NCBI GenBank assembly: GCA_008632985.1
Contig: QPGO01000280.1
Location: 1 to 64,000 of the forward strand
DNA: 64,000 bases
Origin: Psammoneis japonica
Lineage: Eukaryota
Direction: 5' to 3'
In this document: positions 1-61,950 of the stretch, in pieces
Position numbering within the stretch: the first letter of the stretch is position 1
Layout: every line of letters starts with the position of its first letter
Made by a program: the position numbers and the translations under genes
Notes under the pieces: model-generated
Told to the model about the DNA's origin: nothing
The model's database searches: none
Seen by the model: the letters and a program-made list of their open reading frames with translations, nothing else

Positions 1-1090
1 GTTGCCACTGTCAAATCGCTGAAGGTGACCCCCAACACACTGGGCAGCACACTGAGCGTCATCTTTGTTCTCCACAGTGGAAAGGTTGAAGCCATCTGTC
101 AGGGATTCCAGTTGTTCCAACAGGGCATTTGCATGTTCACAATCCGTCTTGAACAGCAGCTTTTGTAACTGAGTTCCGACAATCTCTCTGTTGTGCGACA
201 GATGGTCAAACATTGTGTTTGTGATGGGCACCGAATGCCTTCTCAGTTTGTCCACCAAATCTTTGCCAATGTTGCAATCCTGCCAATCACCAATGAACAC
301 AACACCATTGCCAGTGTCATCCAAGAGGAATTCCCGCTCATTTTCCAAGTTGAAGTGTTCGAAAGGAAAACCGGCAATGTGAGATCCTGCCTCATTGAGC
401 TTTAACACACCTCACAATCATTCTGGGCAACCCAACCAGACTTGGTGTTTCTCAGACAATCTTCGTCTTTCCTCCAACATTTCTCCTTGGGAAGACCTTG
501 GTGTTCAGTGCAAAGCTTTTTGGTGCATGACGTGAACCAAAATCACGGTCAGTTGCAAAATCCACTGTCTGCATCTCGGAGAGAGGTCTTTTTCCTTTTC
601 TGTTGTTCCAGGCTTTGCAACACCTGATCCACCATTGCGGCTCCAACCTTGAGCAATCACTCCATTCACACCAAAATCTTTGGCAACAGTCCCTCGAAAT
701 GAACGGTCAAACTTTGCAGCAAGTGAAAACTCTCATGCTGGCCCACTGCTCAGCCCCTGTTCAACAATGGCTCTGATCTGCATTGACAAACCTGATCCAA
801 GAATTCTTTCATCAAACTTGCACGACCTGAAGACGACATTGTTGGCAATTCCCTCCATTGTGTCCAGGTTCAAAATGAATGGACGAGTTGGATCGCGTGC
901 CTGGTGCGGGTGGTTGGCATCCGAATGTAGAATCTCTGCCTTGCACTGAAGGCACCGACACATTTGCTCCAAAGCATTCGGACCCATCGCGCCATGTGCC
1001 ATTGCATGTGGCTTGAAGTGGATGACAAGGGAACACCTTGTTCCCTCCCTGCCTGGTTTTTCAACAAATGGGACGTCATTGTCGAGTGCA

Positions 1091-2323
1091 TCAGATGGCT
1101 TGTTGGACTTCCAGCAGGGTTGTTTCAGGTGGAATTTTCGCTTGAGTTCTCTTTTGTTGTTCGAATTGTCGCCAATGCTTTTGCGGCGCATTGACAACAA
1201 AGCCCAGTTCTTGCCACCCACCCCATGTGGTTTGGTCCTTCTGCCTCCAACAGCTGACAAGATCAGCACTGCACTGTTTGATTTGCTGGAGGAGAGATTC
1301 TTCCTTGGTTTTCTTGCTGTTTTTTGTTCCACATGCTGAGTCAGGTGTGTCTTTGTGGTCAAGATCAAACTGCACAGCATTCTGGATGGGAGCTGGCCTG
1401 CAATGTGGGCATTGCAGAAAATGCTTGTGTCTCTTGAGACTGCATGTTGGACAATGCACACAGTTGTCACCGGTGAAAACTGGAACATGGCAAGGGTCCT
1501 TTCTTCTTCCAGTTGGTCCGATGTGTTTGACTGGACCCTCAAAATCTGGAAAATGCACCAACGTAGCTTCGCCTGTTTGTGTGAGCCGTTTCACTTCTTT
1601 GTGTTTTAACTCATGATCCTCGGTGCACTCTTCCCTTGCACAAAACTTTCCGCAGGCAGAGATGTCTGCTTGTGCCTCGTCTTGAAGGATGGGGACCTCA
1701 TCGTGTGCTTGCTCTTCACGCAAGAAGCAAATCAGGCACTCTTCCGACATGCGTTGTTTCTTCCATTCAATCCAAAACTCGGAAAAAGCAAGATTGCATG
1801 CAGGCAAAAAGAATGTCCCATCATCCATCAGTGACAGCAGCAGCTCCCTGAGTGCATCTTGGAAAAAAGGTCCCTTCAGAACTGAAGCCGAGAGATGTGC
1901 CAGGTTTGAACACACACAGTCAAAGCAAATGTGATCGAACTTTGTCTCTTTGGACAATCTCTTCCATTCCGCTGATCTGTGCAAATGTAGAACATCGCAC
2001 TCCATGTGCTTTGGTGAGGAAGTGCAGCGCATCCTCTCATCAATTGTGTGGAAGTCACATCCAAGATCCTGCAGGCGTTGAGTTTGAATGCTGTCGTGTG
2101 CATCTTTGTTGCTTCCATTTAAATCACCACCAACTTCCATGCCAGCTGCCAACAATCTGCCAGCATCAATTGGATGTTCGTCGTCCATGTCCTCCGTCTC
2201 CACCCATGTTGCGTCATTGTCATGGGCAGCCTCCTCAACTGAGTTGATGCTGGTGGCGATTGTTTGACTTTGAGCTTTGCTTTCATTCTGGGAGACATCA
2301 ACAAGCATTTTGTCAGGAGACAT
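1091..2323 (-). pseudogene. Degenerate ORF of unknown function (410 aa) with a possible Rossmann/methyltransferase-like segment and a CxxC..CxxC zinc ribbon
   Basis: Long ORF with no Tyr. Segments GCDFHTID..KFDHICFDC..DDGTFFLP and CPTC..CPHC. No family confidently recognised. Confidence 0.3.
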
Positions 2324-2622
2324 TTTTGTCAGGCAGGGAACAGATGGGAAATGGAAGCAGTGTGGCAGATGAAATTCCTTGCCAGCAAAACTTCTTCACT
2401 CTCTGCACCAGTCAAAATTTGATGTTTGTCATCCATGACATCCGTCTCCGCCCATGTTGTGTCATTGTTGCAGTCATGGGTGGCCTCCACACCGGAATCA
2501 ATGCCAGTTGCAATCACCGGACTTTCAGCTTTGCTTTCATTCTAGGACACATCAACAAGAATTTTGTTGGGTGAGGAACAGATGGGAAATGGAAGTGGTG
2601 CACAAGATGCAATCCCTTGCCT
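2170..2622. repeat. Diverged tandem duplication, unit about 240 bp
   Basis: ccgtctcc.cccatgttg.gtcattgt, agctttgctttcattct.g..acatcaacaag.attttgt and gaacagatgggaaatggaag each occur twice, about 240-250 bp apart. Confidence 0.75.
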
Positions 2623-3360
2623 GAACCGCTGTGGATCTTTTGCATTTTTTGGTTTGGAAGCAGCGCGCATTGATGATTTTTCTGCATGCCTTTTTTTCTT
2701 TCATTGAGCCAGCTCTGGGAGGGCTGCCTCCTTCAAAGCCAATCCAGCACAGCTTGGGTGTGCCGGCCATTTTGCAAATTCACTGAGGTGGTTTGGGTTG
2801 CATGCATTGCTCTTCCTGCTGCTCTCAAACGCAAAGATTTTTGCATCAAACATCATCAGCATGATGCCGCGGATCAAGTGGTCTGTCAAACCCCTTTTTT
2901 TGAGTGACAAATGAGCATGACCGCGTTTGTTCACCCAACGTGCGGGAGAACAATGTAGCCTCAATTTGGTGTCAAGGCTGTTTTCTGTGCCAAATGGGGC
3001 CAGATGCACCGGCGGGGAACAACGGCCAGATGGAACGTTGGTCAATGCTGTTTTGGGACATGGCAGCGGCAAAGCAACATCAGGTTGAGTCAGGTGGAAT
3101 GTCGTTGGGAAAGAAGTGCAATGCACTGGATGAAAAAGAGATTCGTCGGCTCCATTTTGGCAGTGTGGCGCAACAGATGAGGGACTGGGCAGCATTCTTT
3201 GGGGTGGAATCATGTTGAGGTTGTTGTTTTCCCAATGTTGTCTGTTCACTGCTCAACATGCATTGATCAGCAACTTGGACAAGATTTGGGAGAATGTGGT
3301 TTGCTGCGGGAGATGTGCTTCACATCATGACAATGCACAGGCTGGTGTCAAGTGTGCAAA

Positions 3361-3512
3361 CAAAAAAGTGATGCCAAAGGGATCTGTCAACAGATGTGTG
3401 CATCAATGAAAAAGTGACACCAAAATCTTCTGTTGACAAATGTGTGCAACAACAGAAAAGTGACACCAAATTGCTCTGTTGACAGATGGGTGCATTGACA
3501 AAAAAGTGATGC
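3361..3512. repeat. Minisatellite, about 47-bp unit, 3 copies plus a partial copy
   Basis: aaaagtga(t/c)(g/a)ccaaa...ctgt(c/t)(a/g)aca(g/a)atg(t/g)gtgca is repeated. Confidence 0.75.
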
Positions 3513-9936: not shown

Positions 9937-11301
9937 ATGCGCACCCACATGGCCCGTCAAGGCTTTGCTGCTGTCGAGGACTTGGAACAGGTCCCCATGA
10001 CAGAAATTGCTGACATGACTGAGGGCATTGTGAAAAGCGTGGATGCCGCCGCCAACCCCCAAGTCCGCTTCCCACACCTGGCGAATCGCAAGCTCAAGGC
10101 ACTGCGTGCATGGATTGACTGCCGCAGGGCCCGAAACCAAGAGCCGACCGCTGCTCTTTTCGCTGGCAACGTTGTTGGAACATGGACGGCACATCTCACA
10201 GAACTAGAGCAATTCAAGTCAGCAGACTCGGACGACGAATCGGCCTCCAAAACAGCCGTGGAGCTCAAGAATCTGTGTGGCTGGCCCACCATCCAAGAGT
10301 CACTGGAGACCAAACTGCGCCACCACCGCAGTGCCGTCACCAGCATGCCCCTTGTCTGCTCAACTGGGGAGCACTAAGACATCACCGCCAAAATGTTGGC
10401 TGCCACCTGCACTGCCATTGACGAGGACCTCATTGCCACCACTCGACTTGCAGGAGCTCAGCACACTCAGGATGGGCAACACCTGCATGATCTCTTGAAG
10501 AAGTCAGTGATGGGGGGGCCCGGATGGGCTTTTGTCAAGCCTTCCAATCACAATCGCGATGGTCGAACTGTTTTCTTTGCACTTGAGAGGCAGGCGGAAG
10601 GATCGGCTGCCACCACCACCCAAAAGAACCGTGCTTGTGCACAGATTGCCACTGCAAAGCACACCGGATGGGGTCGATTCACTTTTGACCAGTGCACTCA
10701 ACACCATCAAAAGGCTCACAACGACTTGTCTGAGCTTGATGAACCAGCAGCCGAGACCAAGAAGGTCTCTGACTTTCCAAAGGGTGTCTCTGACCCCAGG
10801 TTGGAAACTGGCAAGAGTGCAGTGGACGGCAACCCAACGAAGCTCGCGGATTTCGAAGCATGCCAGCAGCACATGAAGACTCTGGTGGAAAATGCTAAGA
10901 ACCGCAATGCTGACACTTGTGGAATCGCGTCCATCCAATGCTGCAACAACCGGCGCGGAAACCCTGGTGGAAAGCACCAACCCAAAGAGGATGAGCCCAG
11001 GATCCGGGCAGGCCACCATCCTGTTGAAGAGTGGAGTGCTCTTGACGGTCCTGAGCAAGAGCAAGTTAAGAAGCTTCGCAATGCCAAGAAAGCCAAAAAG
11101 AAATGCAAAGCTGCAGCTGTGTCCTCAGAGGCTGAATGGGTTGACACCGAAACGCGCGCTGTTAAGAAAGTGGCTGTTGCCGAGCCTGATTCTCAACCTG
11201 CTGATGAACAAAAGGACTCCGAAGAGTCCAACAAACCTGCCACCAATGCAGGCACGCAGTTCGGACGTGGCGCACATGAGAAACCTCAGAAGGAGGAATG
11301 A
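9937..11301 (+). pseudogene. gag: CoDi-1 gag-like ORF (internal stop at 10375-10377)
   Basis: Lies after the PBS. GGPGWAFVK..RDGR..AEG and FTFDQ..HQKAHNDL..KKVSDF motifs. Collinear with 38733-39848. Confidence 0.75.
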
Positions 11302-14300
11302 ATGGTTGCGCCAGCACCAAAAGGTGTAGAACCGAATGTTGCCAAACCTGCTGGCACCACACATTTGTCCAAGCAATTCTTAAAGGACACACATGTCTCT
11401 TTGTCATCTGCTGGAAATTCAGATGATGAAGCAACCACTGATTTGGACTCGCACGCTGACACGTGTGCTGTTGGGTCCAATTTTGTAATGCACTCTGACA
11501 TCGACAGAACTGTTGTGGCACACCCTTGCTCCGAACAGTGCGCACCAATGAAAAACATTCCCATTTGCACGGCTGCTGCCATGTGGGTTGATCCAACTGA
11601 TGGACAACCACACCTGCTGCCAGTCCATGAGGCTGTGTTTTTTGGGGACAAGATGACTGACACTCTCCTGTGCCCCAACCAACTGCGAGTGAATGGACTG
11701 ACTGTCCACGACACCCCTCGCCAGTTTGACCCGACTGGCACACACTCTGTTTCTTTCTCTGACTCAAAGATCAGGATGCCATTGCGCATGCGAGGTGTTG
11801 CTTCAGTCTTTGACTCACACAAGCTGACAAAGGAGGATCTGGAGAACCTTCCCCGGCTGGAACTCACACCACCCCTGAGATGGGAGCCTTCTGCTGATGC
11901 CCTGGCACAAAAGGAGGAAGCGTGTGTGTGTGCCAGTGTGCGCCAAGGATCAGCAAAGTCTGACGGACAGTCAAAGATGATGAATGCGACCAGGTGTGTC
12001 GCTTCCATTCATTCACATCAAACATCACATCACAATGAGAATGTCATCATGGATGCCAACGACGATGATTCTCTGCATCACCGCCTGGTTGCTCAGGCAA
12101 ATGTCTCCCACAATGACATTGAGGGAGACGGGCTGCATGACCGGTGTGACCTGGACATCCACCCGGATTGTGCCGAGCAGAAACGGGTGCATGCACTGTC
12201 GACCTCGAGTCGTGCATCGACTGTCACACCCGAGATGCTTTCTAAAAGGTGGAACATTGGCCTGACGGCCGCTGAGAACACCCTTGGAGTGACGACCCAG
12301 GCAGGGGTCCGCAATGTCCACACACCATCCGAACGGAAAGTCCGGAAGAAAGCCCCTTGGCTTAAGTTCCCTGCTGTCAAGGGCTGCTTCTACTCTGACC
12401 AGATGTTTTCGAAGGTTGGGTCAATGCATGGCGGGACAGGAGGAAGCGTGTTTGCCAACGAAAGAGGGTGTGACAGGTTCCATCCTTGGAAGAGGAAACA
12501 GGACCACCCAAACACCGTCATGTCATTCATGCATGACGTTGGCGCACCACAAGTCCTTGTGTCGGATGGCATGCCGGAAATGGCGGAAGGCCAGACCAAA
12601 GAGATTTGCAAGGCATGCAGGACACACCAGGAGGTGTCCACCCCGCACAGCCCCTGGCAGAACCCAGCCAAGGCATCCATTCGTGAGTTGAAGAAGAGAG
12701 TCCGCGTGACTCTGCGCCGGACTGGCGCTCACAGGCGACTTTTTCCCACAGTGCCAAATGGACATGTGACATCCAATGCATGATTGCGAACAGCATGTTG
12801 GACATGGGAGGACGAGTCCCAGAAGAGGAGGTGACAGGTTCAACACCTGACATTTCGTCCCTCTCTCTCTTTGATTGGTGTTAACCTGTCTGTTGCTGCA
12901 TGCCTGTGGCGGAGTTCCCACTCGAGAAGAAGTGCATTGGCCATTGGCTCGGAGTGGCTGACAATTGCGCTGATGACACAGCATTCATTGTTTTGCCCGA
13001 ATCAGGCAAACCCATCATTCAGAAGGATGCACGGGCCATGCCGGAGGATGACCTTAAAACTCCGGCAATCCAGACGGATCTTGCATCGGTCGATCAAGCT
13101 TTGATCGAACGGCTTAACATCCCGGAACAGGATGCCAGTGCTGACTTCCCTGAACTCCCTGACAACTTCATGGACAAATGGGACAATGCCGTTGAACCCA
13201 TGGAACCCGATGCTTCCAAACCCGAAGCTGATGAGTGCAGCCCGGAGGGGCTGGATGAGCATCTCACAGCTCAAGTCATGTCACCATGCAGAGGCAAGCT
13301 GACTCATGCCAGGGTCATTGCACGCAAACGAGACAGCGACGGGGTTCCCATTGGCACTGGGAATGACAACCCTGTCCCAGACTCGAGGACACACGATGTG
13401 GAATTTCCTGATGGATCCACTGGTTCCTGTGCTGCCAACGCAATTGCAGAGAACCCATTCACTCAGATCAACTCTGAAGGGAATGCCCACCAGATTATGA
13501 AGGAGACAGTCGATCACCAACGTGATGCCCGTGCCGCAATGGCTGATGACAGGCACATGACGACTGAGACTGGCAGGCGTGCTCCTGGGAGGACGACCGC
13601 AGGCTGGGACCTGCAAGTCGAATGGAAGGATGGGACTGCATCCTGGGCTCCTCTCAAGGATTTGAAGGAATCCAATCCAGTCAAGGTTGCTGAGTGCGCT
13701 GTGGCAAACAAAGTGGCCAGTGAACCAGCTTTTAACTGGTGGGTCCGAGACATCTTGCGTCGCAGGTCAAGGATCCTGAAGAAAGTCAAGTTGCGTTGCT
13801 GGAAACGTGCACACAAGTTCGGAATTGAACTCCCGAAATCTGTCAAGGAAGCCATGGAGATGGACAACAGAATGGGGACTGACTTCTGGTTCAAGGCTGT
13901 TGAGAAGGAAATGCGTGACATCATGCCTGCATTCGAGTTCCGCGATGACGACACTGTGCCGGTCGGGTGCAAGCATGTTGATTGTCACATGATCTTTGAC
14001 ATCAAGAGCACCCTCCAATGCAAGGCAAGGTTCGTGGCCGGAGGTCATCAAACTGATCCACCCAAGGAATCAACCCATTCCAGTGTGGCATCGCGTGACA
14101 GCATTGGGATGGCATTCACTGTGGCAGCTCTGAATGACCTGGAGGTCCTGAGTGCTGAGGTTCAGAGTGCCTGCTTGAAGGCACACACCAAGGAAAAGTG
14201 TCACACTGCTGCTGGCCTAGAATTTGGGAAGCACAACAAGGGAAGGCCAGTGATCATTGTCCGTGCCTTGCATGTTCTCAAGTCTTCAGGTGCAAGATTT

Positions 14301-15960
14301 GGGGAACATGTGGCAGTCACTTTGTGCGATGCTGGGTTTGAGTCTTGCAAGGCTGACCCGGATGTCTGGATGCAAGCTGCGGTTAAGCCAGATGGCTTCA
14401 AGCACTGGGAATGTGCACTCATCTACGTGGGCGACTTGCTGTGTGTCTCCCATGAACCTCAGAAGGTCATGGATCATGTGAGCTCCAGGTGCACGCTCAA
14501 GGACGGCAGCGTCTGCGAGCTGGAAGAGCACTCAGGCGCCCAAATCAGAAAGCACCAGCTGTCTGACTCGGACGGCAAGACACGCTGGGCCATGTCCTCT
14601 GACCTTTGTGTCAAAAGGGCACTGGCTGATGTTGAATTAGAGCTTGAGAAAACTGACAGGCGTCTTCCGATGAAGGCGTCGACGCCCTTGAGCTCAGGAC
14701 ACAGGCCTGAACTGGACGGTTCACCTGAGTTGAATGCCAAAATGGCCAACTGCTGCCAAGGCCTTGTTGGTGTGCTGCGATGGGCAGTTGAACTAGGGCG
14801 AGTGGACATTTTTGTCGCTGTCTTGCTCATGTCCTCCTGCTTGGCAGCACCACGAGTTGGACACCTGGACGAGGTGCTCCATGTCTTCACATGCTTGAAA
14901 GCTCACTCCAAGTCTGTGCTGGTGTTCGACGACACTGAGCCTGTCTTTGACAAGAGTCATTTCACCAAGCGCAATTGGGAAGAATGTTGCAGCAGGCATC
15001 CCTGCTGCAGCCGCTGATGATGCCACTTTCCTGTGTCTGTGGGCTGTCCGCAGCCACGCTGATCCCACAGAAGCATGTTGCAGAAAACACGACTCCCAGT
15101 GCGAGACCTGCAACAGGCTGCAGGAGTGACCCATGCGACTGAGACTGGTGTGACTGGCCATCGTGCAAGTGACTCACCTTGTGTGAAGGGTCTGTGTAGG
15201 ATGCACGCAGTGCCGAGCATGAGCCTGTGAATTGGCTCCGCACAAGTGTCAATGAGTGTTGCAAAAGACTCAAGTCTTTCCAATGACTTGTTGTGTAACA
15301 AGAATTCTTGTTTCTTGGAAAAAGACACCATTGCGCATTTGCACTCCAATTAAAATAATCTCACAATTTTCACAACACATGAATTGTCAACCTCTTTGCG
15401 ACCAAGCACTTAGACCCAATTTTTGCATGGGGCAATGTCACCCTGGCACAGCTGAACCAATGCCGCCGAGTGTGCCAGAGGCACACGGGAACAGCGTGAC
15501 CACTGCTTGCTTTGTTGATGCCGATCACGCCGGATGCCGTGTGACACGCAGGTCCCATGCTGGGATCCTGACATTTGTCCAATGAGCACCCATCTTGCAT
15601 TGCTCTGAGCGGCAGAACACCGTAGAGTCCTCTACTTTTGGGTGGGAGTTTGTGGCTGTGAAGACTGCAGTGGAGCAAATTGAAGCCTTGCGTTGCAAGC
15701 TTCGGATGCTCAGAATCCCCATGGATGGGGCCGCTGACGTTTTCTGCAACAATGAGGCTGTCTTCAAGAACTCAACCAAACCAGAGTCCACTTTAAAGAA
15801 GAAGCACAATGCAATTGCCTGTCACAGGACTCGTGAGGCACAAGCCACTGGAACAGTGTGCATTGCTTGGGAAGACGGACACACCAATTTAGCGGACATG
15901 CTAACTGAGTTGTTGCCTGGACTGAAGCTCCGGGAAATCACAAGTCACATCCTGTGGTGA
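11302..15960 (+). pseudogene. pol: CoDi-1 pol (protease, integrase, RT, RNase H), disrupted by frameshifts, stops and an insertion
   Basis: Protease LDSHADTC; integrase VSDG and TPHSPWQNPA..IRELK; RT KARFVAGGH and IYVGDLL; RNase H FVDADHAG, CNNEAV, NLADMLT. Confidence 0.92.
14991..15433. mobile_element. 443-bp non-coding insertion in CoDi-1 pol, with a decayed 8-bp TSD and no TIRs
   Basis: Absent from CoDi-2, where gaagaacattgccct is contiguous at about 43406. Flanked by aatgttgc (14983-14990) and aatgtcac (15434-15441). Confidence 0.75.
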
Positions 15961-22000: not shown

Positions 22001-22309
22001 ACAGTTTCCCTCCTGTTTGCTGTGTTTCTTCAAACAGGAAGACACAGGATCGATTTTTGCAGTGGTCCATCCAACTGCTCATCAAGCTGACCAGAGAACT
22101 GTGAGGCAACGGTGTCAGCATGCAGACTTGGTCAGTCGCTGGCAGCTTGATCACAAACGAAACAACTGGCTTTCAACACCTGAGAAGACTCAGTGCTCAC
22201 CTGAGTTACGTGTTGTCCCTGTCGAAGCAATTGGGGACAATGTTTTGGTTTGTGAAGAATGTCCAGGAGCAGCAGAAGCGCAAGAAAAGGCCCCATTTGT
22301 TTGGGCCAC
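19074..22309 (+). pseudogene. Plavaka-like (CMC/CACTA-related) transposase, interrupted near its C-terminus by the Penelope-like element; tail resumes after 27364
   Basis: IYLDKT..EPVIMT..WKPVGCLPDL..HHTCLRVILEPL..*DAKSGD..CRFC; SDMMHLFENG; KLQKLHETLH; RAHPNC.S.GPWHDFACV. Confidence 0.72.
21734..22309 (+). repeat. 576-bp direct duplication, left copy (target sequence)
   Basis: Near-identical to 26789-27364. Confidence 0.92.
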
Positions 22310-22370
22310 TGTTTTCGGGGTTGTCCAATGCACTGACAGCCTTCAGCGTAACAGCAATCTATTGAGAGTT

Positions 22371-26313: not shown

Positions 26314-26394
26314 TGTTGGAAGTCCACACACACTGTTTTCGGGGTTGTCCAATGTGCTGACAGCCTTTGGCGTAACAGCAATCCATCAAGAGTT

Positions 26395-45169: not shown

Positions 45170-48100
45170 CAGTCGAGATGTGCTCCTGCAGCTGGTGGGA
45201 TGGACAAGACCTCGGAGGTTGGCAGCAATGTGAGTGGCAACAGAGGCAAACAGACGCTTGTTTCAAAGTCGTTGTCTAAAAATTGTGACGAAAGTCGTTG
45301 GTCTGTTTTGAATCGATTTTGTGATGAGCCATTTATTTCGAAGAGAAAATCTGAGTCTGGGTTGCAGTCATGAGATGCGACCAGAATGACGTTGAGTCGT
45401 GACTCTCCCTCTCAACCAAGAGAGCTCACCAGCCCATGAGAGCCTTTCCAGCCGCACGGAACGCATCGGTCCGCAGTCCCTTCGTGAACTGATCGGCCAG
45501 TTGCTCTAGAGTGCTGACAGGTTGGATGTCGATCTCCAATTGTTCGACTTTAGTCCTAAACCAATGGTGCAGGACACCGATGTGTTTGGTTCGCGGAGAC
45601 AACTTGGGCATGCATGTGAACTTGAGGCACGCGGAGTTATCTTCACACACAACGGATGCAGGTGGGACATTCTGCTCAACAGGCGAGTCATCGGTGCCTT
45701 GGTTTGCCAGCTCAAAAGCCTTGGAGTGAGTCGTGATGGGGTTTTGGTGGTCAGACTTTCCGAATGCGTGGTGGTTGCGCTCCTTGAGAACTTCACGAAT
45801 GGGGATGAGATCGCGCACAGCTTGAGAAAGTGCGACACATTCCGCTTCCATGGTCGACAATGCCACAAGAGTCTGTGGCTTGGACACCCAGACAAGCGGG
45901 CAGCCGGCGCAGCAGATGAGGTGTCCAGTCCTGGACTTGACAGAAACTGGGTCTTGACCATCTTCCACACCAAATGACCCCGCGAAGTCAGAATCGACGT
46001 GACAATCAACTCGATGATCTTGCGTGGGCTTGAGAATGAGACCTTCAGTGGCAGTGGCTTTGAGGCATCAGAGCATCCGCTTCACTGCAGCAGCGTGGGA
46101 CACTCGGGGTGCAAACAAAAACCGAGCTGCTTGATGTGTGGCACATGCAATGTCTGGCCGGCTGTTTGCTGCCAAGTGCATCAACATTCCAACAACTGAG
46201 CGACAATCGCAGGGTTCATCAAAAGGCAGGCCGTCCGTGTCAGCACCAATGGCCGCAGGTAGAGCTGGAGCAGATGCTCCATTGCAATCCTGCATCTGTG
46301 CGGTGCGCAGGACCTTGTCAATTAGACCGGGTTGAGTGAGTAGAAATCGACCCTTGGAGAGCTTTTTGATCTTGACACCGAGAAAGTTGCCGACTTCTCC
46401 TTCGTCTCTGAGTTCAAATGCGTGGCGATGTTCGTCGTCGGAGACTCCTAACTTGCGAATTTCTTCTTCTAGAGCTTCAGCTGAAGCTCCAGCAAATGCT
46501 GTGTCGTCGACGTGCACCACACACATCATGCCCTCTTTGAAATACAAACAGGGATCCATTGTTGAAGGCACCCATCCGCGCTTGGTTAAACCAGCTCGCA
46601 ACTTCTCGTAGAAGCCCTTGGGAGACTGTTTTAGGCCGCACAGTCCTTTCAAAAGTTTGAGAACCATGTTGAGTCCCGACCTCGGTGCAAAACCCTTTGG
46701 CGGTGTCACACAAACTTCCTCAACGACATCAGCTTGGCAGAAGGCTGTGGTGCAGTCTGCCTGACGTGCAGTCCATCCTTCCTTCAATGCCGCAGTGAGC
46801 ATGAGTCGGACACTGGACCATTGCACGACCGGCGTGCAGGTTTCAAAACAATCGACTCCTTCTTTCTGTAAATCACCGCGGATGCAGTGTCGGGCCTTGT
46901 GCTTGAGAGGGGTTCCATCTGGGAGTCTCTTGAGCTTAAGTGCCCATGTGCTTTGAAGTGCATTCACATGCGGCTGACGTTCGACTGCTTTCCAGGCTTG
47001 ACGATGTGTGAGTGCGTTGACCTCAATTTTCATCGCCTCAATCCATTCGTCGGCGTCCGGACCTTTCAGAGCATTGTGTGACGAAGGCATGTCAGGGTCC
47101 TTGGTTTTCTCACTAGCCACGCAGGCTCGTGGATCGCCGACATTGATGGTGCCACTGTCCAAATCCGTCTCAAGAGTCGCCAGATGAGCTGGTTGAGCCT
47201 CGTGTCCAATCGGCAGTGGCATTTCCTTGATGGAGCTGAAGCAGACTTCATCTGCAAACTTGGCAGAGTTGAACTGTCCCTTGGTTGACCTTGAAGACCG
47301 TCGCAGCCCTGATGCTCCCTCTGGATTTGTCATGGGAGGTGTCTCGACTGGGGAGGAGCTGTTGGTTCCGTCGGCGCTTCGGGTGGTGGAAGTTTGTCAC
47401 TGTCTTGAGGTTCAGGTGGCTGAATTGGTGCAGAGTCCATAGAGTCTGTAGGAGCTTGAGTCGCAGGTGGGACTGGTGGCATTGGCTGTTGAATCGCAGG
47501 TGCGACTCGATCGGCAACGTCGTCACGAGAAGTGGGTGAATCCCGTGCAGTGATCAATGGAGTGGGCTCAAAATGGCCGCGAACACGTGTTGCTCTGGCC
47601 AGTTCTCGCTCTTTACATTGACACTCTGGAGGGGCAAGCCACTCATCGTGCAAATGGACTGATTGATCCTTCTCCAGAGGGATGCACATTGATTGGTTGA
47701 GACATGAGTGTTCCCAGTGACCAGGTGGATCTGTCTCCCTCTCGATTGATGGTGCGGTGGTGAAGAGATTGTCAAAGACCACATGATGCTGAGGAGCAAC
47801 ACTTCCAGTTTGTAGATTGAGGACCAAAGGAACCTCACTGGAATGGATGGCACTGAGTCCCACGAACAAAGCGCGACGAGTGCGAGGTTCCCAACGTGGG
47901 AGTTTCTTTCCGGAAGTGAGGGTTGGATCAAGTGCGTGCGCTGGACATCCCCATGTGTGAATGTCTCGCAACCAATGTCTTGGCACTGTCGAACTGGTGA
48001 AAATGTCCGCTGGGCAATGTCCCTTGGAATTTGGGGTGACATTGCAGATGTGCGTGGCACAAGAAACAGCCATGGGCCACAGGGAGCTGTCAATCCCTCC

Positions 48101-48178
48101 CTTCCTGTGAATGGATGCATGAAGCAACATCGCTCTCGCCATGTTGGAGATGCTTCGGATGCCCCGCTCTGCGACGCC
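45170..48178 (-). mobile_element. 5'-truncated Ty1/Copia of a second family (integrase C-terminus, RT, RNase H, PPT, probable partial 3' LTR)
   Basis: LWPMAV..WGCPAH..KLPRW; KHKARHCIRGDLQKEGVDCFET; HVDD; VALSTMEAEC; CEDN; RTKHI; QLADQFTK. PPT gagagggagag at 45403-45413 on the minus strand. Confidence 0.88.
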
Positions 48179-48556
48179 CTGGAATGGTGCACATTGCTTG
48201 GGAAGACGGACGCACGAATTTAGCGGATGTGCTGGCCAAGTTGTTGCCTGGACCGAAGCTCCAGGAAATCATAAGTCATGTCCCATGGTGAGTCCCAAAA
48301 GGGGACAAACCGAATGGGTTTGCCGCGCAGGTGCGGCTTTTCCCACCCCCAAAATGAAAATGCTGCCCTGGAATGGGGCAGCATCAGGTTGCATTTGTTT
48401 GTTGATCTGGCCCCGAGCGGAGCTGGCGTCAGTTCGAGGGGACTGAACAAATGCTGATGTGCTGTCACGAACACAGGCAGTTTATGCACTGTTGGCGATT
48501 GGTCCACTGTTGCTTGTTTGGCGGCCCCGGCAGCACAACATCTCACAATTCTAGAA

Positions 48557-50974: not shown

Positions 50975-53900
50975 TGACAATTGGCCATCATCGGCATTGC
51001 CGGAAGGCGATGCCGACCCGAAGCAGCCAGCAACAGAGCGTGTGCCTCGCACGGCAAGCCGCTCAGCTTCCCGTAGATTAGACTTGAACATGGGCTTTGC
51101 CACAGCCAACCAATTTCGCATCCGATGGGTGGAATGGGTCAAATGCTCTTCAACCGAATCAAGCAGTTGGTGCTTGTCTCTTGCTGAGTGCTCATCCGCC
51201 CTGGAATGTGTTTCTTGGACTTCAGCCTCCGTGTCACGGCGTTGAGCAGATTTCTTTGTTTCAGAATCGTGTCCATGCACGGCATCATTGTGCATGTCCC
51301 ACAATTCCCACCACTGTGACCAGATGTAACTGCCAACAGTCGCCGCCCAATCAAGACGTTTCTCCCTGTTGGACAAAGCATGACACACACCTGTGGCTAG
51401 CAGGTGCAACCGCTGGGCCACATTCCACAAAGTGGAAAACCTGCCACTAAAAACGTGTTGCCATCCAATGCTTTCTTGGGACCGAAAAGTTGCATGTGTG
51501 CTGCAATGAAATTCCTCAATGTGTGGCATTTCTTCACGAAACCACCCTTCTGGAGAACCCAGGAGCATGTCCCGCAAAGCCGGGGAGGCATTTGTGTCAT
51601 CGCATTTCTTTTGAAGACCTTGAAGAAATTTGCGTCTCCACACCTCATCATGAGGGCAACAAAGGATGTGATTGCGGTCCTCCATCGGATGTTGACAATG
51701 GATGCAACAGTTGAGACGAGCAGGGTTGCACCTGTGCACAATTTTGTTTGTTGGAAGGAGATCTTGGACTAATTTGACGGTGCTCACCTTGTGCCGGATG
51801 TTCCTCGACATCAGTTTTGAATGCACTTGCCAATCGATTGACTGAAACACAGTGTCGGACCACCCACACTTCTCTTTCATGTGTTGCATAAGAGCTGGAC
51901 TGGATGCCTCACACCAAAGGATGGTCTTGAAGTTTGAAGTCAAGGCACCCGCTGGAATGTCAAGCAATGCGGAGCAATTGGGCATGCGGGGCACAATGGA
52001 GGTGTCACCATCACACTGGCCTTGAAATCCGGTGGCTAGTGTGTCTGCTCGAATGTTCAATTTAGCGGGGAGAGACAAGTGTTGACACGGAATGGTGTCG
52101 TCTTGGTGCCCTTTCACCCAGGAAAGCATCGCTGGTGTGCCCTGCACGCCTTCACTCTGTGTGCCTTGCAATTGTTGCAAAGAAATGAAAATTTCATGAA
52201 TGACATCCCAACCAGGAGCCAGGGTGTTGGAAATGTGGTGCCTCAGGCGAAAGTCCCGTTCACGGTGAGTCTCATCCGCATCGTTGGGGTGTGGGGGCAG
52301 TGCCTTGAAGTTCTGAACGTTGCGGACCAAGGAAGAGTTGTTGCAGTGACACTCTGTCCCAAGTGGAAAGGTCCGATTGCAAAATTTCATAACACAAAGA
52401 AGGAACCGCACCACTGAAAGGTGGCCATGAGCCTCTGTGCGATGCAAGGAAGGACAAAATCCAAAGACTGGGCCTGCACAATCCACCAGAAAAACTCCAC
52501 CGATGGACAACGTCCAGCCAAAGGTGCCATTGTGCTGCACCACCGAGCCATCACTGCCGACCATTGCACGAGAGTTAGCCAATGTTTCCACCAGTTCAAA
52601 CACCAACACGTGCAGTGTCAAGTCTTGAAACAGGGCCGATTCCCATTTAGGTAAAGAACGGACCCAAGCAACAAATTCACCTGGGATGGGGAGACTCGGA
52701 GGAATGGATGCTTTAGAGAATGATGATTGAAGACGCCACTTTCCATCGTCGGCGGTGTCAACCAAAACGGGAGATGCCAAAGGTGACAAGTCCGGAACAG
52801 TCTCCAGGTGCCTCAAAGATTCTGCGCATCTGTCTCGGACGGGGTGTGCATTGCATCCGATGTCAGACCGGATGTACAAAAACTGTTCGCTCGGTTCAAA
52901 GTGAGCCAGGAATTGCACGCGCATGTCGGCAGCAGTGACAATCCATTGTCCTGATGGATGTTTCAGCAAAGAAGTGTCATCCTTGCAAAACATGGCACAT
53001 GCTCAACGCCACTGCTTCCAAGCTCTGGGAGATGGAGACGGCTGTTCCACTGGGTTGTTCAATAAAAAACTGCTGAGGAGGGATCGATCACCTGCCAATT
53101 TAAATTCATCAATGGACAGACTGTCTGGAAGAGCAATGTCAGAAACCGTGAGCACGTTGAGATGCAATTGACAGCAATTGATCCAGCAGATCTCTTTGTC
53201 GGAGAATTCACCAGACTCGAGCACAACATCCATGATGCACTGATCGTTGTCCCGCTGAAGGGGCAACACACCCGCATCGTCCAAGTCGAGAGAGGCATCA
53301 ATCTGAGCCAGAAAAGATTGCAGAGACATGAACCATTTAGATTCAGAATGAGGCAGTTTGGAATGGACATCCACTAAAAAGCTGATGCCAGTGCCCAATT
53401 GAAACTGCATCCAAGCCACCGTAACACGTGACAAAACATGAGGTTGACCCCTGCTGCGCCAGTGCCGAACAAACTGCGTGCATTTGGACATGCCTTGTTC
53501 CACATCTAATGACCGAAAACCGCCTCCACCAAGAGTGTGCGGACCAAACAGCACGTCTCGTTTTGTGTTTCGGTTGTGCCCGCTCTTTGCAAAAATCGTC
53601 CGCATCGCTTTCCGCTGAACCTCCAACAATTCCTTTGGCAAGAAGTGAGCATTCGGGAGATTGTAAGACACAGACGACAAGCAGCAGGCGAAGCAATGCG
53701 TCCAAGCTTTGTGTCCATCAAGAGGACACGCTCTAAGGAACAAGGCAATGTCATCACTCTTCCTCTTTAACGCCAAACATTGCATTTTCTGAGCACCAGC
53801 AGGAGACTTGTAATGCCCCAAGGTCTTGTGAGATGAGCAAGCTGAAAGCTGGGTGCTGGACCTCTTGGCAGCACGGTCGGCGGAGAAAATTTCAATGTCA

Positions 53901-56748
53901 ATTTTGTTGTTAAAGGGGTGCAAGCAAGGTTCGCCATCCTCCATAAAAATCCACTCGATGGCATGAAATGAGCATTTGGGAAGCTCAAGTTCGTGGCCAG
54001 CAGCATTGAGAAGGTCACACCACATTTGGTTGTCTTCCTGCATTTTTGGAACCAGGTCCACAGCGGACGGCTGAGGGGAGGCACAAAAGTCATTGACTTG
54101 CTTCAAGGTGTCATCCACGTGTCCTCAGATGAACAGTTTGAGGGACTGTTGTCAGTTGGGAGATTCGAAATGGGCGCCGTGAGCTTTCTCATCGAACAGC
54201 CAGAACAGACTGTTGCACATTTGATTCCAGTAGAATGGGGAATTGCCACTGCCCTGTCCCGTGCCATAGATTGGGAACTCAGAAGAGTGAGAGCATGAGG
54301 TCGCAGACAGGCCAAGAACCGTCTTTGGCCAATGCCCGGCGCCCTCCAAGGTAGCGTCAGCGGACTGTGTGATCTGCTTGGGCATGCCGTTGCTTCTGCT
54401 CTCCAGTGCCATTAAAGCAGGGACATTTCTGTCACAACAAGAAGTGCAGTCATCATCACTGTGAATGGCAGTCTTCCTCAACACTCTGCTGATTTCCAGC
54501 ATTAACTCCTCGAGGTAAACAGGAGTGTTGGCATTCAAGAATGGTCTTGTGCCGTAAACACCTGGATTGCACAGACGCTGATGCTCCATGTTCTGAGCAA
54601 GGGACTGCCATTTCACACTGGAAATGAGCTGAAAATCGGCCTCATGTGTGTGGATGACGCGAAGTCGGTGAATTTTGGCATTGCCAGGTTCCTTGAAGAT
54701 CATGACATCAACGATGTCTTTCCAATGATCATGCGAGTACCCCCAGTGCAGGGCACAATTGAGCAAGTTCAAACGGATTTGAATCAAGGTGCGTTGGACC
54801 TTGTCCAATGAAGCACATTCCGGAGCAGGTTCGCCATCGGCAGTTTGGGAATGAGAGTGAGCGTGGGAAGTGCACATTGCTTTCCAATGACCCAGATGAA
54901 GGCCTGAGAAAAGCGACGTTGATGTGGATGCTTTCCATGGCTTAATCTTGCCTTCCAAATCCTGAGCCATTAAGAACTGTGACACAGACACTGGAGAACG
55001 GCATTGCAAATGAGTGACAAAGCATGACGCAGCTTCATTGAGCGCAGACGTGTCATGCTCTCTGTCCAGAATAAGATCCGCCACAATTGTGTCCCCTGAT
55101 CAACCTGAGTCCACAGACAGAGGGGGAACAGTGGGAGGCGTCCCATCAGCTTGCCCAAAATGTTTCTGATTCCGTGTGCACAGTGCCGAAGCTGCTTCAT
55201 CCAGAGCATCAACAGCAATCCAGTCCATGCATTCCTTTGGAGGGATCGCCGGATTCCGTGGAACTTGAACACTGTTGATCCCAGTGTCACGTTGAGCTCC
55301 GCACGACTTGATCTTCTGGAACAGCTTGGTGGTCTCTGCTGCCTTGCGAAGGTTACGTAGAACAATCGCCTTTTTACGAGAAGCTGCAGCACTCTCCATT
55401 TCTAGCCAAGCAATCTTGTCGGCAATTTCATTGTCTCGATGCTTGACGCTCTCAGCCGCGACCTGTCTACACTCATTCTGCGCTTGTCGTAAAGCTTGTT
55501 GACACTCTTCAAAGGCAGACGGGATCATGAATTTGCCACTCAGGCTGGTGCGGACATTTTGAATCTGAGCCGCATGATCAATGCGGGTCCGCATCATGGA
55601 CAACACACGGGATAAGACACACACTCGACAACGTAAATCCGCCAACTGAGTCGACCACTCCGGTTCTCGGTGAAGGCGACACTTCTTTGCCACTGCTAAA
55701 GAAAACTGTGACAGATCCCCATCCAGCCTTTCTGCCAATTCATGATCAGGAGTGATGGACTCCAAGAGTGAAGCAGACCTCTCCAAAACGTTCCGACTCT
55801 CTAGCATGGGATTGATGGTTTGTAGGCAGGTGGCAACTTGAGGTTTCGAAGACGCTTGTAAGTCTCGAAAGGCTGTGCCTTCGGAAGATCAACAGTCGGG
55901 TTGCCAAAAAAAGCAATGGCATCAAAGTCCACGAAGTTAGCGCGATGATCCGAAGCAATGCGGTGTCCAAATGCTTCACAGCCACCAAATCGTGCAGCGG
56001 CCAAAGCACCAGGGGCAGCTGAAACGAAATCCAAGCGTTTTGACCCCCTTGTGCAAGTAGAAAATGCCGTGTTGCCTGTGAGAGAAAACATTGCATCGGA
56101 GAGATTGAACCATTGGGCCAAAGTGGACAGAGAGTCGGTGTCAACAACGAAGTCCGTGTTAAAGTCCCCGAACAAAATAACCTCACGGTTGGAATCTGCA
56201 AGAAACTCTTGCAACAAACGAGACAGATCAGTGCAAAATGCTTTGCGAGGGTCAAGGTGTTGGCGGCCTTGCTGACGCAAAAGATGAAGCTGCTGAGCGT
56301 GTGCTGTTGTTTTCCCAGGCCGTGTTTGATTTTTGGCACAAACTCTGCAGCAGGAAATGAACATGACTTGTCTGCCATTTCTGCCATCAAATGTCTGGAT
56401 AGACCAACGGCCTAACGGATCAGCCTCCTGAGAATGGCAGCGAGCAGACACCGCATTGCATGACAACAAAGCCGTGCCACCAGGTTTGTGTTGTGTAGAG
56501 AAAGGAGTTGAGCTGCAGGAAAAGGCACCTCTGCCGTGATGGAGGGAGTTTGTCACTGCAGAACGGCAAACCGACAAAACCGAATGTTGAGCAGTGTCCA
56601 AACAAACTTCCGATGTGCCCACAATGTCAGCCTGCATCTCGTTTGTGATCTGACAGCACACAGCGAAGTCTCCTCCACGTTTGTCAAACTTGCTGCTGTT
56701 TGCATTGAAGGCGTGCAGTCTGGTGTGGTGTGAGAGCTTGGGCCCCAC
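50975..56748 (-). pseudogene. LINE ORF2: AP endonuclease, RT, RNase H and C-terminal Cys/His motif; several stops
   Basis: APE GDFN, RLDFV, SDHR; RT IHRLRVIH, GTGQGSGNSP, GHVDDT, KTLG; RNase H SDGS, RTEAHG, WVKGHQD, NIRADTLA; CIHC..H..C. Confidence 0.88.
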
Positions 56749-57117
56749 AGAGTCGCCAACGGAAACGTTTGTCTTCAGGCGGGAAAAATCGATGCATCAT
56801 CTGGCAGAGGATTGAAACCGCCTGCCATCCAAGAGAGTCTGCCATGTGGAAGAAGATGTGTCTGTTGAAACGGCACTGCTCATGGTTGGGCCACGCTCCT
56901 CCGAAGAGAAGACTGGGGCTCACAGCACTGCCAGCAGGTTGAACCGAAGAATGAGGACACGGATGATTTGCAGATCTTGAAAGAAGGTTAAAGGTCCCAT
57001 GACGGGAAGTCCGACGAAAAACATGAGAGAGAGCAGGCGGAGCAGATGCTCGGGAAAGGATGTCAGGAGGGCACCTTAATGTTTGAGGGGGTGGAGACGG
57101 CGAGATCCAACCCCTGG

Positions 57118-58964: not shown

Positions 58965-60474
58965 GATCATGCAAGATGGAAAGCCAGCAGTGCATTGGTT
59001 GTGGAAGCTCAGTGCAGTGCAGCACAATTGCTCAACCATTGAGAAGAAACTTCTCGTGGTGGCAATGTGTTTCAAAGAATTTCATTCCATGTTGCTTGGA
59101 GCGGATTGCACTGTTTTCACTGATCATAAAAATCTCACCTTTTGCACGCTCAACTCTCAACGAGTGCTCAGGTGGAGAGTCTTTTTGGAGGATTTTACCC
59201 CAACCTTTGAGCATGTTGATGGCAAGAACAACCTGTCAGCAGATTGTTTTTTGTGATTGCCACGCATGGATCCACCAATGGAAGGGAAGTGTGCTCCAAA
59301 CAAAGGCAAACTGACAGATTTCAAAGCAATCGACACTGCCACGCTGCCTCATGAAGAGGAGCTCAACAACATGGATCGCGCATCTTGTTTTGCTTGCTGT
59401 CGGGAAGAGCCATCTCAGTTTCATTCCTCCTTTGTTGATGATCCGGAGCTGTGTGAATCATTCTTGAACTGCCCCTCACTTGATGAAATGCAAAACCCAA
59501 CAACTGTGCAACAGATTCAGGAGCATCAATTTGTTGATGTGGAGCTGAACAACATGAGACAACAATGCCCGGAACAATTCGTGATTGAACATGTGAACCA
59601 GCATCCTGTCATTTGCTGTTGTGCTCATCCCAATGCTCTTGCAACAGAGTGGAAAATTTGTGTCCCCACTGTTTTGTTACCTGATGTGATCCACTGGCAT
59701 CACAGGACATTGGGGCATGCAGGAATGCACCGCATGCACTCAACTGTTGGCGCGCATTTTTGTCATCCTGTCCTTTGTTGGATTTGTGAGGAATTTCGTT
59801 GTGCTGAGTGTCAACACTTAGAAACTTTGGGTCCGGGACATGGAGAACTGCCTGAATGCAAAGCGTCCTTGCTGCCATGGAATGAAGTTGCAGTCGACCT
59901 CATTGGTCCCTGGAAGATTGACACTCAGGGCCAGGAGATTGAACTCAACACTTTGACTTGCATTGACGCTGTTTTGAATGTTGCTGAGCTTGTTTGCATC
60001 AACAACAAAACCTCCAAGCATGTTCCCCAGCAATTTGAAAATTGTTGGTTGTCTCATCATCCTCTTCCCAACCGTTGTGTTCATGACAATGGCGGAGAAT
60101 TCATTGGAGAACACTTTCAACTGTTGTTGCAGCAGGCGGGAGTGGAGGATGTGCCCGCCACGTCCAGGAGCCCACAAGCCAATGCGGTGTGTGAACATGT
60201 GCATCAAACTGCTGGCAATGTCTTGCATGCTTTGCCTCACCTTTGCCCTCCACAGAACATTGGGCAAGCCAACCAACTGGTGGATGATGCTTTGGCAATG
60301 ACAATGCACGCAATGCGGTGTGCAGTGTCCCGAGCTCTCAAGGTCTCACCTGGTGCTGTGGTGCTTCATTGTGACATGACACAAGATCTGCCAGTGCTGG
60401 CAGATCTCGCCGCCATTCAAGAACATCGACAAGCAATTGTTGGTGCAAATCTCCACAGAGCAAATGCCAAATGA
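58965..60474 (+). pseudogene. pol: Gypsy pol, part 3 (RNase H remainder and integrase)
   Basis: [31 protein letters not shown]...GHAG..C..C; EVAVDLIGPW; HDNGGEF; PQANAVCE. Confidence 0.9.
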
Positions 60475-60739
60475 CGCTCCTGCGATTTTCAAGTTGGCAG
60501 CCAAGTGCTTGTCAAGACTGTTGGTCCCACCAAGCTTGCACCTTGAGTGCATGGTCCTTGTCCCATTGTTCAATGGCTTCATGTGGTGGAGCAACTTGAC
60601 GTTTGGCATGTCGCACCACATCGAGTTTGAGGCCAAGGGTTTTTTCCCAACTCTTGGTCTTCCCTTGTTTCCTCTCATAAAATTTGAATTAGAATTTTAA
60701 AATTTTTGAGTCCCAAATGACTCTCATGATTCGAGTCAT

Positions 60740-60751
60740 GGAAGGGAAGAG
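60740..60751 (+). promoter_or_regulatory. Probable Gypsy polypurine tract; a 3' LTR would start TG at 60752
   Basis: ggaagggaagag|tgcaat downstream of the integrase. No matching 5' LTR found in the window. Confidence 0.5.
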
Positions 60752-61102
60752 TGCAATGTCACGCACCCCATTTTTCTGATGTGTGGTGTCAATGATCCTG
60801 CCAGACACAAGAGGAGCCATTGTGATGGGCTTCGCTGAAAGCAACCTCATCACCTTGGTCTCTCTCTCACAACTTTGTTGTCACTCAAGTCTTTGTCTTG
60901 TTGGACCTTGCAGATCGAAGAGTGGAAATGCATGTTTTTGAGAACGGCAATTTTGTTTGTGCAGTCATTTGGGGATCAAACCTCACCCAATCGGACACAA
61001 TCGCCAATTCAAAAATTGAAACACCAAAGGTGGTGCTTGCTGAAATGGGCACATTGAAACACCATGTGTGGCGCTTGTTTCCGATTGGCGTTGAGCGAAG
61101 TC

Positions 61103-61950
61103 AGGCTTGGTCTGCAGGTGAGCCGAGCTGGATCGGATCACTGGATCGACTCCTTCACAACCCAATGAAGTGTCAGTCCATCGAGTCAAAAAGTCGATCC
61201 GTGGCCTTCGTGGAACTGATCCGCCATCTCGGATCAGACGGTCTTCGAAGCAAAATGTTTTGCTCCGAAGACCGTCCGATCCGAAAATCCAGATTGGACG
61301 TCGGATCCAATTTGGAGGGTTCCATGCCACCATCACGACAATGGCACAACATCACATGATTGTGACACAGAATGGCATGAGATTCAGCCATGAGGGCAAG
61401 GAACATTCTTGGCATTGTGGTCGAAGTCTTTCCATGCTCAAAATGAAGATGAGAAAGGTGGTGTGGCAACAGAGCAGCTTGTCAAACTGACAATGCGATG
61501 CAGATTTGTTGGAGAAACATTGAACAAGCAAAGTGACAAGCACCTGTCATGTGACTCGAAGTTTCAATGCGAAAACATTGCACTGGTTTCCCAGCTGCAA
61601 AAGTGACAGCTTTTTCTTCCTCAGCATTGCTGTGGACATTGAGTGACAACGATTCTCAATGATGCGGTCACATGTGCATGCAAAGCTGCGGCAACAGCAT
61701 GGCTCTGTTGTCATGTCATTGCGTTGTGACAAGATGTGAAGCATCATGGCCACACTTCTTGTTGTTCGCTGTTGTCAGTGCTTTGTCATTCTTGGGAGTT
61801 TGGAATCTTGAAACTTGTGTCGTTTTGCGACTCATCAAAATGTCAAATCCGATCCGCGATCCGATCCGGTTCCACCTGTCGACTAACGGAATTCTGACGC
61901 GATCCGATCCGTTGATCCGATCCGGCGCGGTTCACCTGCAGACCGAGCCT
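61103..61950. mobile_element. MITE-like element with ~46-bp imperfect TIRs, GGATC-rich subterminal repeats and an internal 56-bp palindrome
   Basis: aggcttggtctgcaggtgagccgagctggatcggatcactggatcg versus the reverse complement aggctcggtctgcaggtgaaccgcgccggatcggatcaacggatcg. No clear TSD. Confidence 0.68.

Follow-up and report, generated by a model that had tools for sequence, protein, structure and literature searches.

We analysed a 64,000-bp stretch of DNA from Psammoneis japonica (assembly GCA_008632985.1, contig QPGO01000280.1, positions 1 to 64,000 of the forward strand), referred to here as the window. Positions 1..61850, to which no strand is assigned, form a domain of degraded transposable elements (TEs) that is depleted of both TpA and CpG, and the results showed that TpA has given way there to TpG and CpA. 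The change followed integration of the elements, fell on the two DNA strands alike, reached a DNA transposon as well as retroelements, stops at a border and depends on an extended sequence context. We consider it very probable that a host process turns TpA into TpG or CpA in integrated transposon DNA, symmetrically with respect to strand, almost to saturation and up to a sharp domain edge.

TpA is depleted ten-fold throughout the transposon domain

We counted dinucleotides over the whole window, which has a GC content of 0.50. TA occurs 462 times, compared with about 4000 predicted from base composition (observed/expected ratio, o/e, 0.116). TG and CA are in excess (o/e 1.58 and 1.59), CG is reduced (0.59) and AA is not depleted (1.20). 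Positions 1-61950 contain 376 TA (o/e 0.097), and in the domain itself the TA o/e is about 0.10, with CG at 0.57 and both TG and CA at about 1.6. These values bear out a preliminary description of this DNA, which had called TpA scarce and TG/CA abundant over about 62 kb. The depletion is even from base 1 to about 61,900: the TA o/e per 4 kb lies between 0.04 and 0.18, and each of the first 62 kb holds 1-14 TA, and the final two hold 43 and 41. A ten-fold loss of TpA at this GC content is the opposite of what repeat-induced point mutation (RIP) leads one to expect, namely raised TpA and AT.

The losses and gains were then set against each other for positions 1-61850. The excess of TG plus CA (4645) stands against a TA deficit of 3505 and a CG deficit of 1653. 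CpG decay thus accompanies the loss of TpA, with a CpG o/e of 0.57 in the domain and 1.12 in the flank. The ratio of TA to TG plus CA is 375:12377, which would imply a bias of at least 30-fold if the sequence is at equilibrium.

The depletion also marks the coding content. Across six frames we counted 338 TAA, 209 TAG and 2939 TGA stops, and because TAA and TAG are rare the domain holds many long open reading frames (ORFs), with 127 stop-to-stop ORFs of at least 130 aa on both strands of 1-61850. A Pfam scan recognised 6 of 64 stop-to-stop ORFs, a low yield due to the extent to which the proteins are altered. Tyrosine makes up 0.32% of the 8521 residues in 19 long TE ORFs, compared with 2.61% in 120 Copia homologues.

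Homologues place TpA in the ancestral codons

Comparison with homologues covered a Copia element and a Plavaka-type transposase; the LINE-like (long interspersed nuclear element) element, the ORF with an integrase-core (rve) match and the CoDi-like copies A and B were judged by composition, motifs or Pfam matches. We aligned the best-preserved ORF of the window (46068-47333, minus strand), from the Copia element, to 52 Copia homologues at 47-57% identity, the closest named relative being from the diatom Fragilaria crotonensis (56% identity). At the 12 columns with a Tyr majority, the window's residues are F H C W C C C C H C H C (7 Cys, 3 His, 1 Phe, 1 Trp and no Tyr), and each of the 52 homologues retains at least 8 of these 12 tyrosines. 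Other conserved residues are mostly retained in the window (Arg at 15 of 15 positions, Gly at 15 of 16).

We then took all Copia-type pieces of the window together, in which 66 codons with TG or CA depart from the majority residue of the homologues. That residue returned in 36 of the 66 when TA was put back, and in 3 when CG was. The changes that TA restores are Tyr to Cys or His, Ile to Met, Val to Ala, and Leu to Pro or Ser, which are the classes with TA-containing codons. Together with the absence of Tyr from all 12 columns, this codon test upholds the earlier claim that TAY codons became TGY or CAY. The Tyr-derived codons, some of which are paralogous positions, divide into 11 TGY and 11 CAY.

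The Plavaka-type transposase showed the same pattern. Against its nearest relative (61% identity), 18 Tyr positions have become 10 Cys, 4 His, 1 Ile and 1 Gly, with 2 still Tyr, and five Tyr-majority columns read 3 His, 1 Cys and 1 Arg. A near-length search of a protein collection for paralogues from the same genome gave no match above 61% identity and did not bring up the protein of the window itself. In 80 related metagenomic Copia loci the TA o/e ranges from 0.43 to 0.92 (median 0.62), none of them falling below 0.3, indicating that the depletion was acquired and is not a trait of the family.

Repeat copies changed independently after integration

Two 5.2-kb copies of a Copia-like element, copy A (10113..15850, plus strand) and copy B (38660..43825, plus strand), were compared base by base. 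Their 586 aligned differences include 535 transitions. TG in one copy faced CA in the other at 131 double sites, and every other double-transition pair occurred at most 10 times. A further 156 differences set CG against TG or CA, and 28 set TA against TG or CA. By this comparison the ancestor had about 250 TA in 5.2 kb, as dense as in relatives that were not mutated, which suggests that the family transposed with a normal TA content and that its copies were probably mutated one by one afterwards.

Seven repeat pairs from the window gave 930 differences. The largest class was formed by 214 TG/CA double sites (428 differences), followed by 247 CpG-type differences, 77 transversions, 49 TA-type differences and 30 ambiguous ones. 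A/G differences numbered 49 after A and 50 after G. Sites derived from TA amount to at least 214 doubles and 49 singles. Fitted to the numbers of CG/CG and CG/x sites, a model of homogeneous CpG decay predicted about 42 of the 214 doubles. In the pair of repeat blocks X and Y, 34 of the 35 differences were TA-type, TG/CA doubles or CpG-type.

The ancestry of the sites could be read directly from the inverted duplicate of a Copia reverse transcriptase (RT) segment (44248..45167, plus strand, 94% identical to 46797-45878). Nine Tyr codons are paired between the two copies: three set TGY against CAY, two are TAC facing a mutated codon, and four are concordant. At shared ancestral Tyr codons, CAC in one of the copies can face TGC in its partner. 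Because paralogues carry TGY or CAY and TG/CA doubles dominate, the changes arose after integration and on both DNA strands equally. The claim that integrated double-stranded DNA is the target therefore stands, on the equality of the strands, the inclusion of a DNA transposon and the independence of the paralogues.

The surviving TA sites depend on their neighbours

We estimated the survival of TA in each tetranucleotide context against a baseline of 80 related loci (15,826 TA in 321,762 bp), which is an imperfect baseline for the values that follow. No ATAT was found where about 305 were expected. Survival was 0.012 for ATAC/GTAT, 0.04 for ATAG/CTAT, 0.05 for GTAC and 0.065 for ATAA/TTAT. It rose to 0.17 for CTAC/GTAG, 0.22 for GTAA/TTAC and 0.24 for both CTAG and CTAA/TTAG, and was highest for TTAA (0.45). 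Pairs within the window agreed on the last point, as TTAA accounts for 3 of 169 doubly mutated sites and 6 of 29 conserved TA. At 46 sites mutated in one copy only, a 3' C on the mutated strand was found 13 times versus 1, which is only a hint. The process thus responds to bases beyond the dinucleotide: it favours ATA/TAT and TAC and disfavours TAA.

A deconvolution of strand and context choice by 4-mers against the same 80 loci was also tried. Its class fractions summed to between -0.02 and 1.91 and not to 1, and it was rejected because the composition of the baseline is mismatched.

TpA returns within about 100 bp at the domain edge

Positions 61951-64000 served as a control within the window. 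They contain 86 TA, with a TA o/e of 0.80 and a CpG o/e of 1.12. TpA o/e therefore differs between TEs (0.097) and the neighbouring gene (0.80), where equality would have spoken against the preliminary description. By our reading of the sequence the switch takes place within about 100 bp near 61,900, TE-like DNA being free of TA up to about 61,850 and the sequence rich in TA from about 61,965. The border zone itself (61851..61960, no strand; defined by sequence reading and a 500-bp profile) is made up of short repeats of the GATCC(G) type. These form a patch rich in CpG at 61841-61930, which may be a boundary element or simply the end of a TE.

The adjoining gene behaves differently from the TE repeats. 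Within its tandem repeat, 32 differences include no TG/CA double, and 18 of them are transversions.

Sequencing reads agree with the assembly

One DNA run (X1) contains the region, and no RNA run was listed for it. The unitigs of X1, at a k-mer depth of 26-34, match seven stretches of the window with 0-1 differences; the reads of this run, a check to which the preliminary description had pointed, thus agree with the assembly, which makes an assembly or base-calling artefact unlikely. One of the matched stretches (61923-62400) falls on the gene's side and has a comparable depth. The unitig depth is 26 for the flanking gene and 30-34 for unique TE stretches, and this similarity on the two sides speaks against a chimeric join.

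Thousands of contigs that stem from other copies in the genome differ from the window by 147 A>G, 150 G>A, 126 C>T, 137 T>C and 100 transversions. Among the 40 listed of these 660 copy differences, 5 are adjacent CA<->TG doubles, 12 are CpG-type and 2 are TG/CA to TA. Summed depth indicated that the TEs are multi-copy, and all segments compared with reads are at multi-copy depth. The segment 49527-50140 has a summed k-mer depth of about 29,600 in run X1, compared with about 30 for unique unitigs, which suggests a genomic copy number in the region of a thousand for this repeat.

Comparison with known systems

The preliminary description had known of no earlier account of the process. This is out of date, since a preprint reports exactly such TpA to TpG/CpA hypermutation, in integrated DNA of nucleocytoplasmic large DNA viruses (NCLDV) and virophages in Bigelowiella natans (Mettrop et al., bioRxiv 10.64898/2026.01.13.699255, 2026). 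According to that preprint, two integrated viral regions received 231 of 302 de novo mutations, of which 230 of 231 were A>G or T>C, falling on TpA. The de novo rate was about 6e-7 per site per generation, about 1000-fold, the NCLDV target was single-copy, and the process was active in only some of the mutation-accumulation lines. The B. natans genome contains 124 clusters depleted of TpA and enriched in CpA plus TpG, and its TpA-depleted coding sequences are enriched in RT, endonuclease-RT and DDE Pfams. The authors propose an ADAT2-like DNA adenine deaminase, with U/T preferred before the edited A (10.64898/2026.01.13.699255).

The window resembles B. natans in that only TpA is struck, in that TpG or CpA results according to strand, in the AT to GC transitions, in localisation to foreign or mobile DNA and in the long-term loss of TpA with gain of CpA plus TpG. 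It differs in degree and in target. The two viral regions of B. natans are mildly depleted (Rho_TpA 0.45 for the NCLDV), whereas the window is saturated (o/e 0.10); the two regions measured there are viral, whereas in the window retrotransposons and a DNA transposon are hit over 62 kb, with CpG decay in the same place. The accessible preprint text mentions no diatom or stramenopile (10.64898/2026.01.13.699255). A full-text literature search, which left subscription journals mostly outside its reach, found a TpA>TpG/CpA process described in B. natans only, and none in diatoms or others. No protein named from B. natans was among the homologue matches of the TEs in the window. Judging by these TEs, whose closest named relative is a diatom's, the window probably represents a second lineage beside B. 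natans.

RIP consists of C>T changes, mainly CpA>TpA, which raise TpA and AT content, and it needs duplicated sequence and a sexual cycle, as is well established (see also PMC7296669). As in ascomycete RIP, the changes in the window are post-integration, dinucleotide-specific transitions on both strands that inactivate all repeat classes up to a sharp target edge. Unlike RIP, they remove TpA and raise GC. The preliminary description had placed the polarity opposite to RIP and to decay of 5-methylcytosine (5mC), and the ten-fold depletion of TpA and the TA>TG/CA changes at Tyr columns agree with this. The process is thus a counterpart of RIP in logic with opposite polarity, and not a member of it.

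Two further systems share features with the window. Methylated-CpG deamination of silenced TEs yields the same TG/CA products and is visible in the CpG o/e of 0.57 and the 247 CpG-type differences, but loss of TA and replacement of Tyr by Cys or His are beyond its reach. Editing by ADAR, ADAT and APOBEC enzymes shares the deaminase-type transitions, the 5'-U/T preference of A-to-I editing and a proposed role in defence against selfish elements. Those enzymes act on RNA or on single-stranded RT intermediates, on one strand, whereas in the window both strands of integrated DNA are changed, those of a DNA transposon included.

Proposed mechanism and alternative explanations

In the reading that we prefer, a host process would convert TpA to TpG or CpA in transposon DNA following integration. 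It would strike either strand with about equal probability, approach saturation and end abruptly where the TE domain ends. In the same domain CpG would undergo its ordinary decay to TpG or CpA, both self-complementary YpR (pyrimidine-purine) steps draining into TG/CA, and the outcome would be permanent inactivation of the TEs through replacement of Tyr by Cys or His, Ile by Met, Val by Ala, and Leu by Pro or Ser. Such a process may well be an enzymatic, targeted defence pathway, guided by silencing marks, small RNAs or repeat recognition, with adenine deamination by an ADAT/TadA-like enzyme as the leading candidate. A tie to heterochromatin or 5mC, as suggested in the preliminary description, is conceivable in that CpG decay has the same border. 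The preliminary description treated TA>TG and TA>CA as one event on opposite strands, which was correct; it read this event solely as A>G, which was not, since on the self-complementary step TA it can just as well be written as T>C at TpA.

The most serious alternative, which we regard as unlikely, starts from this second description and places the lesion on thymine. In silenced DNA, the thymine of TpA would be the substrate of a TET/JBP-type dioxygenase and become 5-hydroxymethyluracil (5hmU) or 5-formyluracil (5fU), which would mispair with G and yield T>C. 5-Formyluracil is mutagenic towards T>C, and 5hmU of dinoflagellates is enriched at TpA. T>C at TpA covers both TA>CA and TA>TG, and in a single domain both decaying steps would be 5'-pyrimidine transitions at YpR (C>T at CpG, T>C at TpA). 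This alternative concerns the enzymology and not the phenomenon, and it is as compatible with the sequence as adenine deamination. On the other side, the B. natans authors prefer adenine deamination, pointing to an ADAT2 homologue with DNA-editing-type residues (10.64898/2026.01.13.699255).

The preliminary description had also offered error-prone repair synthesis by a Pol eta-like enzyme (WA>WG), which would be recruited to deaminated 5mC and make A>G. CpG decay is indeed present in the same domain, and the WA preference of Pol eta includes TA. Pol eta also produces A>T and A>C changes. In the seven repeat pairs, however, transversions are only 77 of the 930 differences, A/G differences after A are no commoner than after G, TA-derived sites come to at least 214 doubles and 49 singles, and AA is not depleted. 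On these counts we consider this candidate very improbable.

An artefact, in which a modified base at TpA is miscalled in long reads while the true DNA still reads TA, is more improbable again. Modified bases can produce systematic consensus errors in nanopore assemblies, and the sole supporting run is possibly not independent of the assembly. Against this, unitigs at depth 26-34 with 0-1 differences in seven stretches need accurate reads, the outcomes are specific to individual copies, and the mass balance with CpG decay, the frameshifts and the stops indicate real evolutionary decay.

RNA A-to-I editing of the ADAR/ADAT type, acting on retrotransposon transcripts and fixed by reverse transcription, is hardly credible. 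The UA context would suit editing enzymes, which prefer U before A. Such editing predicts A>G on the sense strand only, giving Tyr>Cys, and we found the even division between TGY and CAY, a CpG origin of the CAY outcomes being excluded by the Tyr columns. The Plavaka-type DNA transposon has been changed just as much, TG/CA outcomes are independent in duplicated copies and in non-coding repeats, and the border coincides with the edge of the domain and not with the edges of elements. The even strand split and the affected DNA transposon effectively exclude this route and leave integrated double-stranded DNA as the substrate.

Heavy CpG-methylation decay combined with an intrinsically TA-poor TE or genome composition, with no special process, would fit the low CpG o/e, the CpG-type share of the inter-copy differences and the possible origin of TG/CA doubles from CpG, but it can be set aside, as CpG decay is unable to remove TA or to make Tyr codons Cys or His, related elements and the adjoining gene have a TA o/e of 0.43-0.92 and 0.80, respectively, and the CpG model yields only about 42 of the 214 doubles. 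A TA photoproduct of ultraviolet light was considered as a non-enzymatic cause and rejected, as it cannot account for a border about 100 bp wide.

Several points weigh against the reading of a host process acting on TpA in integrated TEs. The whole case is drawn from one 64-kb window, and the specificity for TEs from a single border with 2 kb of non-TE sequence, where the sole control gene has bacterial or archaeal named relatives. In the codon test, 27 of the 66 changed codons fit neither a TA nor a CG ancestor. TG/CA doubles can also arise from CpG, so that how many of them are credited to TA hinges on a simple model together with the codon test. Run X1 is possibly the source sample of the assembly itself, its platform not being on record. 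Finally, the process may now be extinct, and the surviving 375 TA could in part be back-mutations.

Elements of the domain and the flanking gene

Copies A and B belong to the Copia-like element that the preliminary description called CoDi, and are 88% identical. Copy A carries a 705-aa ORF (12900-15017) with a weak RVT_2 match and, as had been claimed, a single Tyr. This lone Tyr lies inside the RT motif YVGD, where copy B has CVDD (42853-42864, plus strand); the motif has thus lost its Tyr in copy B and its Asp in copy A. A 177-bp direct duplication (43649-43825 and 49197-49373, 95.5% identical) flanks a block of about 5.4 kb that contains a second Copia element and the inverted fragment, and this block is apparently a nested insertion or a rearrangement within the 3' repeat of copy B.

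The second Copia element (45429..48268, minus strand) comprises the RT ORF 46068-47333 used for the alignment (RVT_2, E 4e-34) and an integrase SH3-like part (47333-48268). Its HVDD motif (46503-46514, minus strand) recurs in the inverted duplicate (44531-44542, plus strand). It also contains GVDCFETC (46836-46859, minus strand) and KHKARH (46887-46904, minus strand). For the latter an ancestral KYKARY had been proposed; the altered motif is present as reported, but the homologue consensus has Phe and not Tyr at the first position. A CIDD motif, ascribed in the preliminary description to a Gypsy RT, lies at 50426-50437 (plus strand).

The Plavaka-type DNA transposase (19074..22376, plus strand) consists of two ORFs and was assigned by comparison with homologues. 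Its ORF 20580-22376 has 745 relatives, of which the full-length ones carry the Plavaka transposase domain, with scores of 28.4 bits in P0364 and 40.4 bits in P0365 (cut-off 26.3). The repeat blocks X and Y (21734..22760, plus strand) have second copies at 26789-27364 (X) and 26331-26784 (Y), 95-98% identical. Their order is permuted: X-Y is followed by 3.6 kb with minus-strand ORFs and then by Y-X, which does not match a simple pair of long terminal repeats (LTRs). Block X overlaps the 3' end of the transposase ORF, and the GPWHD motif of this region (21948-21962, plus strand) has a second copy at 27003-27017 (plus strand).

A LINE-like element (53003..56796, minus strand) contains an Exo_endo_phos domain (55804-56796) and an RT-like HVDD motif (54110-54121, minus strand), with which all motifs quoted in the preliminary description (CVDD, HVDD, CIDD, GVDCFETC, KHKARH and GPWHD) were located in the window. 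An ORF of an LTR-type element (59257..60471, plus strand) has a weak integrase-core match (E 8.5e-4, below the Pfam cut-off). Scans of the window for tRNAs and Rfam families gave no matches.

Beyond the border lies a DUF7507/DUF11 repeat-protein gene (62131..63966, minus strand), which continues past 64000 and has a TpA o/e of 0.8, a CpG o/e of 1.1 and intact Tyr codons. It contains a 327-bp tandem repeat in 4.3 copies, 97% identical, and a Cys-rich C-terminus. The named relatives of its product are all bacterial or archaeal, and the best unnamed matches (58-71% identity) lie on long contigs. A cluster search with the protein returned only bacterial DUF7507 clusters, every score being below 0.9. 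This is perhaps a gene of bacterial type within a eukaryotic genome.

Significance

To our knowledge, programmed mutational inactivation of eukaryotic mobile DNA is almost unknown beyond RIP and CpG decay. The window is a saturated end state, on TEs, of a kind of process described only very recently, with its precedent in one preprint on one organism. The action covers every TE class tested here, retrotransposons and a DNA transposon. In practice, the near absence of TAA and TAG means that gene callers report long spurious ORFs, that domain searches miss TEs and that TE annotators are misled in such regions.

With a second and probably unrelated host, the TpA pathway would prove to be general. 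The clean end-state spectrum with its extended context, in which ATAT never survives and TTAA survives best, would serve as a yardstick for candidate enzymes, and the findings would point to genetically tractable diatoms as a place to find the enzyme, possibly one that naturally edits A to G (or T to C) in DNA. Tentatively, and with the balance still somewhat against it, TpA editing of integrated DNA may be a widespread and possibly ancient defence, shared across SAR (stramenopiles, alveolates and Rhizaria), that permanently kills every transposon class; its agent would be a naturally occurring editor of adenine (or thymine) bases in DNA, directed along with CpG methylation to domains under silencing, with a preference for ATA/TAT and sparing TTAA. 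If a second lineage does show complete, TE-wide action with a sharp border, the process would be both general and tractable.

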